From assembly GCF_006345805.1 (NCBI RefSeq), contig NC_042998.1:77810001-77874000 (forward strand): 64,000 bases of DNA, in the 5' to 3' direction. The notes under the pieces were generated by a model. The model was given only the letters and a program-made list of their open reading frames with translations, did no database searches and had not been told where the DNA came from. The DNA is from Octopus sinensis. Taxonomy: Eukaryota. The position numbers and the translations under genes are program-made. This document shows, one piece after another, positions 6,645-53,105 of the stretch (position 1 is the first letter of the stretch; the number at the start of each line of letters is the position of its first letter).

Positions 6645-6985
6645 ATTAATAAATCTTAGGGTAGCAAAAAAAATTAGAAAAATTCTTTGCTACTAGTTGT
6701 CTAGCGAGAAGAAAAAAATAGTCAATAGTCTATATATATTATTCATCTAAAAAGACAGTGTACATTTAAACATATAAGAGATGGCCACAACAGGACATCT
6801 GACTCGCTAGAAAGAGTAGTTAAACTACAAATCACTACTAGTTGTAATTCTGAAAGGGAATGAAAGATAAAGATATTTACCCTATTTTTCCTGGACTATG
6901 CATAGTTTCAAGCAATCTTTTGTAAATAAAATAATTTACAGTTGGCGAAGCTCTCTTCAGCAGGAAGCTAAGGGTAACATAATTT
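6645..6985 (-). mobile_element. Penelope-like pseudo-LTR element (family P1) carrying a hammerhead
   Basis: Diverged homologue of 11751-12100. Has the same terminal hairpin and 8-bp long-range stem and contains the HHR at 6888-6966. Confidence 0.65.
6888..6966 (-). ncRNA. type I hammerhead ribozyme motif
   Basis: Minus strand reads UUCCUG-CUGAAGA-GAGC…GCUU-GAAA-CUAUGCAUA-GUC-CAGGAA: 6-bp helix I, intact core, palindromic helix III (CUAUGCAUAG), GUC cleavage triplet. Confidence 0.85.
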
Positions 6986-9900
6986 CAATACAAATGATAT
7001 TTGCCAGAGAGCTATACTAAATGCTTTAAGTACGAATAGATACTTGGAATATATTGAAGACTAATACATGCATACATACATGGATGCACACACATACACA
7101 CACACTCACATACACACACACAAACACACACGCACACACACACACACTCACACACATACATATATATATATGTCTATGTGTATGTGTGTGTGTGTGTGTG
7201 TATGTTCACTAACATACAATTATACGCATGTGCAAGCCTGCATGCATGTCTCTATGTATGCAAGAATTTTTATATATGTAAAATTTAGATACAAATGAGT
7301 GTGTATATACGGGACTGCATGTAACATACATGAGTTTTGTATGCAAATGCATGTGTTGATGTATGTAAATGTATATGTATATGTTTAATGTATGCATGTG
7401 TATATATCTTCACATATATGTATTCTTCTATTACTAACCTCTGACCTGTCCTTTAAGTAACCAAACCAATTTCCCCTAATTCTTCATTCCAGCTTTTTAC
7501 TACCCCTATCTTTAACCTTTACCCTCTCATCTCTTTACACTCTCATATCTTTCTCTCTCTCTCTCACCCTCACCTCTTCTTTCCTTCTATCAATTTATCC
7601 TGACTGACTACTAGCCAATACTCTCTCCCTCCTTTCATTTCTTTTTATCTCTCTTTGTATGTACATGACCATAAATGTGTGTATGTAAGTATATGAATAT
7701 GTTGATATGTATATATATATATATATATATATATATATATATATATATATATATGTATGTATGTATGTATGTATGTATGTATGTATGTATGTATGTATGT
7801 ATGTATGTATAAAATCATGTATACCGATGACAGTATATGAGGTATGTACTGAAACCGTAAAATCGTAAAAGAATAAAAGAATAAAGAACACACACATATG
7901 TATATGTATATTTAAAGATAATTATTTCTGTGTTTACACCGAGTGATTGAAAATATGTCTGTATATCGGTGCAGGCGAACAACTCACTTGCAGTGAGAAA
8001 GCTTCATGTAGTGATTGATTAAGCGACTGTGATGGAAAACAGGACATATGAAATTAAATTTTACGAATGGATTGGAAGACAAGTTCGCATCCCACTGGAT
8101 TAAAAGGGCGATATTGCGTCTTTTGTAGACTAAATATGTACAGTTAAAAGTGATAACGAATACTTCTTGTCTATATCTTGACATCTCAGACTTTTAATCT
8201 ATTTTCATATAAAGTGACACGCTTACAATAAGAAAGACAGAAGTTAGGTTTGTCTAAATTATTTTTATAGTTTTGATTTTTATATCCATTAACTAATTTG
8301 CTCTATTTATTTTGTAATTTTATTTTGGATGTTAACGCCCATTATTTTATTTGATATCTTATGGCGTATGTCAACTTGAATTTCTATACTACTCAGTATA
8401 GAGGGAATGTTAAAAATAGAATATTGTATAAAACGATATGAAATTAGGTGTGATCCCAGTAGTTCTATCAATGCCACTCACTTGATGACGTGCGGGAGCA
8501 TAGCTGCTGCGTTATATTTATATGCTACATAAGGAAAACACAACAGCTAAAATATGTTAACAATTCACAGAAATAATTATTGTAATTAGAAATTAAAGAC
8601 TGCTCATTCCATCTTAATGTTTTGTAAATTATAAGAGAAATACCTGTAGGTTAATGTGGAGCATAATATTATCTTCTATACTCACCTCATGCTTTAATCT
8701 AAAGTATTAACATATTGAATACTAAGAACTGAATATTAATATTGGTATATGTAAGGGAATTCATTGGACAAAAACCTAATGGCATTAAACACAGCTAGGA
8801 ATGTCAGATTAACTCTTGACAACTTAATCTGGTGTGCCCACATATAAAACGATGACTTCGCCGGCAGGGCGTGCTCCTGCATTCTCAGACATTTACGATC
8901 TTTCTATTTTCCATATTCACCCATCGTCATGTTGAATATAGCTGTTTGCTATTGTCTCTGAAGTATCCAACAGCAAAAATAGGCCGTATGAGATCGGCTT
9001 GAAAAGCTCAAACTTCAATCCATAAGAGAGAGAGAGATAGAGAAAAAGAGAGTGAGAGTAAGAGAGAGTGAGATAGAGATGGAGAGAAAGATAGAGAGGA
9101 TGTAATTTAATACTGAAAGAGCCATTCAATGACAAAAATAACGGTGTCATAAGGCGTCAAATTTTTCCAGACATATATTTCATACTTGGAAGTACGGTGC
9201 TCTGCGCGATTGCAGAGAGAATAACAATAGTCGGTCACTGTTTATATCCTCTAAAATTTAGAAGCCGTTCATGTCGAAATACGAAGAGTACAAGTGCATG
9301 GACTTTGCGATTCAAAAAGTTTCGAGAGAGATTGTGCGGACAAGGCGCCACTGCAGTATGTCAGTGCCCGGTTTTTGTGCATGAGAATGAATTAATTATT
9401 ACATAAAAACCAATTATCAGTATATTTATTTATTTGCCTTGACATTGGCAACCTGCTGTCTACTACAAAAACCAAACAACTAAATATAGTGTAAACACGA
9501 ATAAAAACATCATTTGTCTCTTTTATGAAGTTGCGAGCGAGATATTAAATATGTAATGATAAAAGTTCATATTTGCGCTTGTGTGTTGGCATAGCCATAC
9601 ATTATTTCCAGCTAGGAATGCCTATGTCTTCAGCTTACAGAAATTGACTGTGAGCAGATGATATTTGATCTGTTAGTACAACATAATGCATAGTTTTCAT
9701 TAAAGTGTGCCTTGGTTCTTTGAACAAAACGCCTCTTCTTCATCTTGAGTATTCATATAACTTATTCGCTCTCTGTCGTAGTCTAACACACACGCATGCA
9801 CACATAAGCCCACATACGCACACAGACGCGCATACGTACTTATATGTATCTATATCTACATGTATATCAATACACACACACACACACACTCATACACCCA

Positions 9901-10048
9901 TATATATATATATATATATATATATATATATATACATATTTATGTGTATATATAAGTTTAGATACGTATCTATGCATAAGTGTGTGTGCATTTTGTTCAT
10001 GGTTTTTGACGTCCTGTACCCATATATGCATGTATATATAAATACATA

Positions 10049-11230
10049 CACAGACATGCAGGAAGTAAATAGACACCTTTAATTTTCAAAATCTTTTATT
10101 TAATACGTACACGAACAACTGAAATGTACATGCATTTGTATTTAATTCACATTTCCTTTGCAGTTTTTAATTCAGAAACTCTTTTTGGCATTGAACTGAT
10201 AAGTTTTGTGATTGTCTCTTGCGGAATTTCGGCCCACTTTTCACGCAGAAATCGAAGCAGTTCATCGTTAGATTGAGGTTTCTGTCGAGGTGTTCGTATA
10301 AAGCTATCTAGTATGCACCAAAGATTTTCAATTGGGTTGATGTCAGGAGATTGGCTCGGTCAAGGAAGCATTTTGATTCCAATTTCAGTTAGCCATTGTT
10401 GATTCCTTTTCGCTGTGTGCCATGGAGCCCCATCTTCCATGAATAAAAACTCATTTTTCCTTATATTATCGTTTGAATACATCGTAAGTAATCTTTGCTT
10501 AAGTATTTCGATGGATTTATCAGAGTTTATTGTTCCAACACATTCGATCAGCTCAGAACAACCATTGCTGGTGACAGCTCCCTGGGAACTCTCCAAACCC
10601 AAACATGTCCACTGTCTGAAAATAATATAAATCTGAGAAAATCATTCTATCCCAAAATAAACTGGATTTTTCTGACATTTCCTTAGCCCATTTCTTTCTT
10701 TTCATGATATTAATTGGTTGAAGAAGAGCTTTTCTTCTAGCTGCTCGTCCATAATACCCAAGCCTATGCAGATATATAACACACGTTCTTGGACTAACTT
10801 CTTGCGGTTTTACAATGTCAGAAGCCTTTGAACGGGGTTCATTTTCCACAATTCTCTTCAAACAGCGAAGCTTCCTTTCTCAGAGCCCAGGTCGGCCGGG
10901 ACGAGAATCTGTTGATTCTTTTCCTTGGCTTTTGAATTGCACGATAATTCTATTAACAGTAGCAAGAGGAATATGAAAGATTTCGGCAATTTTTCGCTGG
11001 CTAAGACCAGCCTCAGATTGACCAATAATATGACCTCTTTGAAAATCTGACAGTTCTGTTGAATATTTTGTGCGTAGCATGGTTACTCTTTGCAAAAGTT
11101 TAAGATAACGACCCCTTGAATGAAAAATAATAATTACATTGTAAATTCTACACCGCTGAAAGCATATCAAGAGGCTTAGATCAGAAATTTTGAAAATCAA
11201 AGTTGTCTATTTACTTCCTGCATGTCTGTG
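10049..11230 (-). mobile_element. Tc1-family (DD34E) DNA transposon, both ends intact, transposase decayed
   Basis: 44-bp TIRs (CACAGACATGCAGGAAGTAAATAGACA…, 2 mismatches) and TA duplication at 10047-48 and 11231-32. Confidence 0.93.
10150..11080 (-). pseudogene. Tc1-like transposase pseudogene
   Basis: [15 protein letters not shown]…[35 protein letters not shown]…LP*PSQSPDINPIENLW (34 residues between D and E). Split by frameshifts and a stop over ORFs 10880-11200, 10553-10861 and 10360-10602. Confidence 0.9.
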
Positions 11231-11284
11231 TATATATATAGGTATGTGCATATATGTATGTATATATGCACACACATATAAAGC

Positions 11285-52005: not shown

Positions 52006-52127
52006 ATATATATATATATTATATATATATATATATATATATATATATATATATACATATATATACATATATGTGTGTGTGTGCGTGCGTGAGTGCGTGC
52101 GTGTGTGCGTTGTGCGTGTGTGTGTGT

Positions 52128-52456
52128 ATTCTTTTACTTGTTTCAGTCATTTGACTTCGGCAATGCTGGAGCACCCCCTTTAGTCGAAGAAATCGATCCC
52201 AGAGCTTATTCTTTGTAAGCTTAGTACTTATTCTATCGGGTACTTTTGCCGAACGGCTAAGTTTCGGGGACGTAAACACACTAACATATATACCATCGGC
52301 TTCTTTCAGTTTCCATCTACCAAATCCACACACAAGGCTTTGGTCGGTCCGATACTATCGTAGAAGACACTTGCACAAGATTCCACGCAGTGAGACTGAA
52401 CCCAAAATTAAGTGGCTGGGAAGCAAGCTTCTTACCACACAGCCACGCCTGCACCT
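52128..52456 (-). mobile_element. SINE family S4 with intact head
   Basis: Minus strand starts AGGTGCAGGCGTGGCTGTGTGGTAAGAAGCTTGCTTCCCAGCCAC. Confidence 0.8.
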
Positions 52457-52539
52457 CTATGCATATATCATTGCGATTATGTTATAATGTCATATGTCCC
52501 AATTTGGTTTATGCGTTTTGATTCAATATTTATTTTTGC

Positions 52540-52752
52540 TTGCAATAGCCGGTTCTTTTGGTCAATCTACCGTATCTCTAGCTGTTTCGGAGCCAAGATA
52601 TCAAATATTGTCAAATCTTGTTGAACGTTGGGAAGATGTTGTAAACAACAAGAGTGAATACATTATTGATTAATTAGTTGTTATTTTTTTATTGAACCTT
52701 TTAAAAAAATTAAAATAAAAAACAGCGGGAATTTAGTTGCCAAACCAATATA
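52540..52752 (+). mobile_element. mariner 3' end remnant
   Basis: LVERWEDVVNNKSEYIID* followed by a TIR-like AAAAACAGCGGGAATTTAGTTGCCAAACCAATA. Confidence 0.55.
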
Positions 52753-53105
52753 TATATTCGTGTGTGTGTGTGTGTGTTTGTGTATGAGAGAGAGAGAGAG
52801 AGTGTGTGTGTGTGTGTGTGTGTGTGTGTGTGTCTGTGAATATATTATACATATTATTATAATAAGGATAACATCTATATAAGAATTTATTAAGTAATCA
52901 CCGTGAAAAACCACTTAAAGGAAACATTTATACAAAATATATAATTTAATCCCTTTCTAATATATCTATTATATTAAGAGCATTACTACACGTAATTACC
53001 TCACGCTATAAGGGACTCTTAAAGTCAAACCTAGCTTAATAAATATACAGTGTACCGATAGTGAGGGAATGCAACTTGGAAGTCGTCTCTTAAAAACAGA
53101 TTCAG

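Follow-up and report, generated by a model that had tools for sequence, protein, structure and literature searches.

A covarying stem joins the two end signals of hammerhead repeats in Octopus sinensis in one fold, a probable double start signal for a Penelope-type reverse transcriptase

Metazoan non-LTR retrozymes (LTR, long terminal repeat) are non-coding tandem units of ~450-550 nt with a type I hammerhead, and their mobilization by Penelope-like elements has been proposed, with the mechanism left open in the accessible portions of the two accounts used here (PMC7229834; bioRxiv 10.64898/2026.07.22.740005). In vitro, the Anolis Poseidon protein PAc cuts AT-rich DNA on both strands and extends both (Frangieh et al. 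2024, PMC11167929). PAc, a predicted dimer, begins copying at two sites inside the RNA, which mark the borders of the genomic tail, and its start lies in a stem loop (PMC11167929). Endonuclease-positive (EN+) Penelope-like elements have an inverted pseudo-LTR (pLTR) and often a tail at one end only, according to the available part of PMC8557442. Here we describe a 64-kb stretch of the 2.72-Gb genome of Octopus sinensis (contig NC_042998.1, positions 77810001-77874000; "the window"). Six copies in the window are, judged by their motifs, non-coding hammerhead repeats that fit the metazoan non-LTR retrozymes and are dispersed in (TA)n. They share an RNA module at which a borrowed Penelope-type reverse transcriptase (RT) probably starts in two places, with one hairpin for each insertion end.

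The fold has three parts: a long-range stem of 8-10 bp (P1), a hairpin enclosed by it (P2) and a terminal hairpin (P4). On the hammerhead strand the order is a pyrimidine run, the P1 5' strand, P2, CT(T/A/C) with AU-rich bases and a variable loop, frequently with a small hairpin of its own (P3) and a U run, followed by the P1 3' strand, a CCACT-like linker of 5-6 nt, P4, and CT(A/T/C)A with AU-rich bases. Each end signal is a hairpin, CT(A/T/C) and about 10-15 AU-rich bases. Insertions end at two fixed sites, A after P2 and B after P4, outward against (TA)n. A preliminary description of the window had proposed a two-stem module in six copies of one element family. Its stems are real, with all 12 arms of the long-range stems exactly at the positions given and all 8 arms of the terminal hairpins located at their copies, but the third part, P2, had been missed. 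The six copies do share an architecture but represent five families: A (at 11755), B (at 16165 and 26500), C (at 6650), D (at 50760) and E (at 52860). The copies with stems at 16216 and 26676 are one family (B, 72% identity), and P2 has been deleted from the former. Three of the window copies form head-to-head inverted pairs. Of the two conserved flanks named, RRCTGYTATTT occurs four times in the window, each time ahead of a P1 arm, and CCACTKG ten times, four of them at modules. The features are as follows.

11755..12290, minus strand: family A left arm, a 487-nt monomer and part of a second; its 3' end is site B, against (TA)n
12293..12720, plus strand: family A right arm, which faces the left one head-to-head; it has the P1 5' strand and P2 without the tail, and its 3' end is site A (12719-12720), against (TA)n
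11974..12080, minus strand: family A type I hammerhead motif, predicted cut between 11982 and 11981
About 12491-12597, plus strand: second family A hammerhead copy, from its sequence motif
11887..11894, minus strand: P1 5' strand, family A (sequence and fold)
11864..11885, minus strand: P2 hairpin within P1, family A; site A lies 12-13 nt downstream (11851-11852)
11824..11838, minus strand: P3, small hairpin in the variable loop, then the U run, family A (fold)
11800..11813, minus strand: P1 3' strand and CCACT linker, family A (sequence and fold)
11766..11799, minus strand: P4 terminal hairpin, family A; site B lies 11-18 nt downstream (in this copy about 11752-11755)
6644..6980, minus strand: family C single arm with a B-type end; hammerhead core from 6960, P1 6701-6708/6803-6810, P4 6660-6694
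16160..16460, minus strand: family B copy; hammerhead remnant at 16427, P2 deleted, P1 16216-16223/16278-16285, P4 16169-16208
26500..26809, plus strand: the other family B copy, decayed; hammerhead at 26517, P1 26676-26683/26749-26756, P4 26764-26795
50755..51282: family D inverted pair; left arm (minus) ends at B, right arm (plus) at A; P1 50820-50826/50894-50900
52851..53467: family E inverted pair; left arm (minus) ends at B, right arm (plus) close to A; P1 at about 52902/53001, hammerheads at 53160 (minus) and 53266 (plus)

The proposal that pairing is kept while sequence changes held across 13 lineages, tabulated after adding further ones to those above; two of them, families G and H, were first met through covariance-model matches in unrelated loci. 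Because MAFFT alignments spanning all families put P1 out of register, pair counts use a hand-anchored table and a model-fitted alignment, the latter including fragments, five rows in which P4 is antisense and one match that is probably false. Over seven P1 positions in 13 lineages, 91/91 cells were paired (85 Watson-Crick, 6 G-U, 0 A-C) against a mean of 55.5 when 3' arms were permuted, a count that is partly circular because the lineages were partly found through their pairing. The nine lineages of one register gave 63/63 paired cells against 55.8 permuted (p 0.0003). Both sides had changed in 7 of 9 P1 pairs of the model-fitted alignment, a count that leans to its own model. Family G is a less circular test of P1 pairing: it was met through two copies with a broken P1, and the majority of its 20 copies shows a 10-bp P1. 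P1 arm spacing varied from 80 to 111 nt over the 13 lineages, with the position of P1 relative to both hairpins fixed.

A covariance model built from families A, C and D matched the hammerhead strand of both copies of family B, which had been left out of it (E 7e-5 and 2e-4); the 52900 copy was not recovered by it at E<=1. In 1.11 Mb of sequence from loci enriched for these families, a descriptor (P1 of at least 7 bp, linker, hairpin and CT) matched 299 times, against once on the reversed/complemented strands. The copy at 11748-11906 folds with z = -6.3 (0/200 shuffles equally stable), and family A pairing probabilities of P1, P2 and P4 were 0.86-1.0 in linear and circular folds.

Upstream of the module, families A-E, G and H have a type I hammerhead core (CUGANGA/GAAA with stems, recognized by eye and by regular expression), for which the motif predicts self-cleavage. 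Family A is a 487-nt non-coding unit found in tandem arrays, with full-length matches 94-100% identical; units measure 535 nt in family H, about 540 in D and 454 in G, and no tandem copy of family B was seen. Genomic matches to families A-E numbered at least 149, 53, 66, 53 and 54, with 40 candidates scored for each out of 934-3605; these are lower bounds because they come from retrieved loci and not from a genome-wide covariance search. None of 15 open reading frames (ORFs) tested from the window matched Pfam, and long ORFs in 220 loci resembled neighboring elements or simple repeats when judged by eye. In an Rfam scan 132 matches had E<=1, all of them microsatellite-driven matches to microRNA models; none reached the gathering score or lay on a module, a negative that is weak because the scan also missed the hammerheads. 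For the earlier alternative that the module is a second catalytic element we found no support.

Each of the two insertion ends lies shortly after one of the hairpins. In family A, site A falls 12-13 nt after P2 in 24 of 33 copies and site B 11-18 nt after P4 in most copies, the position of B being blurred because the junction is AT-rich. Outer ends of family A map to monomer positions 93-101 (A) and to 477-487 or 1-2 (B), and the same two registers recur in families B-E and H, with an A-to-B distance of about 98-128 nt. Both ends are RNA-sense 3' ends pointing outward into (TA)n, and the 66 inner 5' ends of family A are scattered over monomer positions 10-457. Five of the 66 lie in the 14 nt surrounding the predicted hammerhead cut (p 0.04), a weak hint of self-cleavage and circular RNA; at loci L003, L015 and L177 arms stop at monomer 227-229, which is that cut, and most arms read through.

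This distribution bears on whether the repeats could be Helentron/HINE-like DNA elements. The 5' and 3' termini of such elements are fixed, and they carry subterminal inverted repeats and a hairpin. Cutting at site A would give a unit with the P1 arms as subterminal inverted repeats, and tandem arrays occur; fixed termini, however, are contradicted by the spread of 5' ends, and the head-to-head insertions with two 3' ends and the hammerhead cores upstream of the module also speak against this reading, which is very improbable and already largely excluded.

To pair the ends without bias, matches of family A, the youngest family, to a query common to both arm types were collected, giving 25 distinct insertions. 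All 17 two-armed insertions had one A and one B end (p 8e-6 under independent 50:50 end choice), and the other 8 were single-armed (3 A, 5 B). Pooled over every family A locus, A+B accounts for 36 of 41 insertions with two arms, and three others (L003, L012 and L189) have one end elsewhere. Older samples, which favored B-containing arms, comprise families B, D, E and H; family C is outside the end-pair counts. Family H had 8 of 11 called A+B, three in which AT run-on blurs the A end and no A+A or B+B. Family B had 6 of 9 A+B, family E 7 of 11 with one A+A, and family D 4 of 14 with one B+B; in D the second arm was mostly unresolved. A tail at one insertion end only is thus found in 17/17 insertions (36/41 pooled). 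Together with fixed 3' ends, variable 5' truncation and an inverted 5' arm, this is the EN+ Penelope-like insertion pattern, except that the tail is about 98-128 nt long here and 30-40 bp there.

Other insertions deserve mention in their own right. A different hammerhead element at 42037-42955 is a head-to-head pair with arms 96.7% identical; its right arm alone extends ~160 nt further, reaching a hairpin and (TA)n, and this may be a long tail on one side, with no recognizable P1. At 35875-36202, an older pair of inverted arms has a hammerhead-like core; one of the arms is ~35 nt longer and ends in a small hairpin and CTAC, a classical short tail. Short near-perfect palindromes between TA runs (28269-28331 and 20634-20689) are perhaps very short inverted stubs of similar elements. 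Outside the window, a complete B+A family A insertion stands twice in tandem with its TA flank (L178:1747-3396; local duplication or assembly artefact), and a single TA run holds, tail to tail, insertions of two different module families (L045:1681-2021), which suggests that the target was used repeatedly.

Strand evidence bears on whether the module acts as RNA or DNA. Two G-U pairs at 26676 had been offered as such evidence; they are private changes of a decayed copy whose family majority is Watson-Crick there, and the argument is void because single-copy departures from pairing yield similar numbers of G-U and A-C (71 vs 58). Family-majority stems contain 7 G-U, 1 A-C and 2 other mismatches in 173 pairs, plus one G-U in family H, so that G-U exceeds A-C by 8:1 (p 0.02); with internal pairs only, by our own classification, the ratio is 5:1 (p 0.11). 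Equal numbers of G-U and A-C on the two strands had been named as the outcome that would argue for DNA-level repeats: single copies do behave this way, but family-majority stems favor G-U. Folding energy in 19 copies showed no strand preference. An ADAR-type A>G excess on the hammerhead strand was considered and rejected (149 A>G vs 241 T>C, in counts whose family G alignment includes unrelated flanks). RNA-level over DNA-level action is modestly supported, and rests more on end polarity and the hammerhead than on wobble counts.

These data also bear on the possibility that the module is a DNA recognition site for a GIY-YIG endonuclease, with A and B as cut or resolution points and not RT starts. 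The Penelope tail is needed for endonuclease recognition of plasmids, as cited in PMC11167929, the tail has been ascribed to endonuclease-mediated resolution in the accessible text of PMC8557442, and the strand-neutral folding energy is in keeping with a DNA site. Both ends, however, are RNA-sense 3' ends facing (TA)n, G-U pairs favor the hammerhead strand, and tail borders have been mapped to RT start sites (PMC11167929). We regard a DNA site as quite improbable.

The two arms of an insertion derive from one haplotype. In 33 family A A+B insertions, arms differed at 7 of 234 polymorphic cells against 28% when permuted (0/5000), 15 of 114 rare variants were common to both arms, and units of one array mostly carry one haplotype. 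A single haplotype would also follow if one cDNA folded back and was copied, the return strand being cut or stopping at the second site; under such self-priming the structure may act on single-stranded DNA or antisense RNA, and self-priming on an antisense template is proposed in the part of PMC3846280 available. Arm lengths are compatible with fold-back in 27 of 33 insertions, and in a hand count 5 of 33 had arms matched within about 16 nt after tail subtraction. Six of the 33 are nevertheless impossible from either arm (e.g., L164 and L005), two of them missing by only ~15 nt beyond tolerance. Since both DNA strands are extended from RNA in vitro (PMC11167929) and G-U pairs favor the hammerhead strand, fold-back seems unlikely to be the explanation.

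The reading of the module as a double RT start signal extends an earlier suggestion that it is an RT recognition or priming signal, which has strong positional support in the hairpin before each fixed end, with support for RNA against DNA only modest. We propose that an endonuclease would cut both strands of (TA)n and that a dimeric RT would sit on one RNA, a circle or a multimer, with one subunit at P2 and the other at P4. P1 would hold both start signals at its opposite ends, fixing their geometry whatever the loop length. Both DNA 3' ends of one break would then be primed and extended on one RNA, and the two cDNAs would stop at variable points and be joined, giving an inverted pair with a one-sided tail. 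The A-to-B stretch corresponds to a lengthened Penelope "tail." RT binding, the dimer, the RNA circle and the role of P1 are all proposed parts of this scheme. A more speculative extension, to which we give somewhat less than even credence, is that the RNA is a pseudo-twofold scaffold in which each P1 strand emits one "hairpin-CU-template" unit. One RNA would load both subunits of a telomerase-related RT dimer, both break ends would be copied in concert, and read-around of the circle would yield arrays. If so, the scaffold would account for how Penelope insertions acquire an inverted arm and a tail on one side, and would amount to a portable cis-signal, about 150 nt long, for RNA-templated insertion at two ends.

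A borrowed enzyme requires a donor, and the search for one covered GIY-YIG and Poseidon-type loci; Naiad, Hydra and further families lay outside it. RT+GIY-YIG frames are abundant in the genome (at least 147 matches among 150 scored, with Pfam run on two). The best candidate partner is a (TA)n-inserting family with open 781-aa RT+GIY-YIG frames, of Neptune/Nematis type as judged from the CxxC linker and not from a tree. Of its 39 ends, 30 are short and 9 have a ~40-nt tail ending in a hairpin and CTAA; this optional tail and the (TA)n target, which is also that of the retrozymes, count in favor of the double start signal. This family is young (L226:1532-3874, L227-L231 and L321-L340). Two of its copies have an open frame of 479 aa upstream, its 3' region is repetitive and its hammerhead degenerate, and a motif similar to the retrozyme linker lies in the optional tail. 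In a Poseidon-type family, which lacks the module, the two ends are about 30 nt apart. A very abundant Poseidon-type element (L292-L320) has two ends at that spacing, and its end carries a tRNA-like stretch, an (AAT)n run and an intact-looking hammerhead.

Several observations weigh against a clamped double start signal. The main one is that autonomous elements lacking a recognizable P1 also have two ends, so not every family requires P1 for them. No autonomous element ending in P1/P2/P4 was found in 49 GIY-YIG loci or 29 Poseidon-type loci; the model matches in GIY-YIG loci were, wherever inspected, separate retrozyme insertions, and the Poseidon-type loci gave no match. The Neptune/Nematis-type family, for all its (TA)n target and hairpin+CTAA end, has no P1/P2. 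A+B pairing has exceptions: L186 and L187 in pooled family A look B+B, and there is B+B at L107 and A+A at L139. Shared haplotypes could reflect two transcripts of one source locus or later inter-arm conversion. To these are added the circularity and model dependence of the P1 counts, the weaker G-U bias at internal pairs and the many length-compatible insertions under fold-back.

The two-ended autonomous elements without visible P1 fit an alternative in which P2 and P4 are independent start signals, each with its own RT. P1 would merely compact or stabilize the (circular) RNA, and A+B would come from nick order, the first nick priming one site and the second the other. Retrozyme circles are also predicted to be highly self-paired, in the accessible text of PMC7229834. 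The fixed position of P1 relative to both hairpins in 13 lineages, with the loop varying, is not required of a generic stabilizing stem, and we consider independent starts the less probable explanation, at perhaps one chance in a handful.

The double start signal would matter for two questions. The origin of Penelope inverted arms with one-sided tails is named as open in the available part of PMC8557442 and in PMC11167929, and RT recognition of retrozymes is left open in the accessible portions of PMC7229834 and bioRxiv 10.64898/2026.07.22.740005. The module is a short, covarying, non-coding substrate with two predicted starts and clear compensatory mutants, testable in the published in vitro assay. 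Its young families (copies 94-100% identical) reside in a genome whose open RT-endonuclease frames are candidate enzymes.

The retrozyme class, two internal RT starts and a one-sided tail are already published. As far as the accessible parts of the retrozyme accounts go, the repeats here resemble metazoan retrozymes as dispersed non-coding hammerhead tandem units, and the end structure, end registers and A+B rule are described only here. In the open-access main texts (subscription papers, Repbase/Dfam and supplements, including PAc Fig. S1-S2, lying outside) we found no description of the clamped fold, the tail of about 98-128 nt or the counted A+B rule. With EN+ Penelope-like elements the repeats share head-to-head 5'-truncated arms, a one-sided tail and, in some clades, a (TA)n bias; in the available text of PMC8557442 and PMC3846280 that pattern is qualitative and explained by endonuclease resolution or antisense self-priming, whereas here the one-sided tail is counted (17/17) and linked with an RNA fold and one haplotype. 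Like PAc, the repeats have two internal ends bounding an optional tail and an AT-rich target. The PAc tail, however, is 30-40 nt long, overlaps the ORF start and is AC-rich, and the main text reports no covarying fold (PMC11167929); the tail here is about 98-128 nt long; it is non-coding and AU-rich, and the fold gives each start one hairpin, with a stem as clamp. What is new here is that covarying stem, which joins both end signals in one fold.

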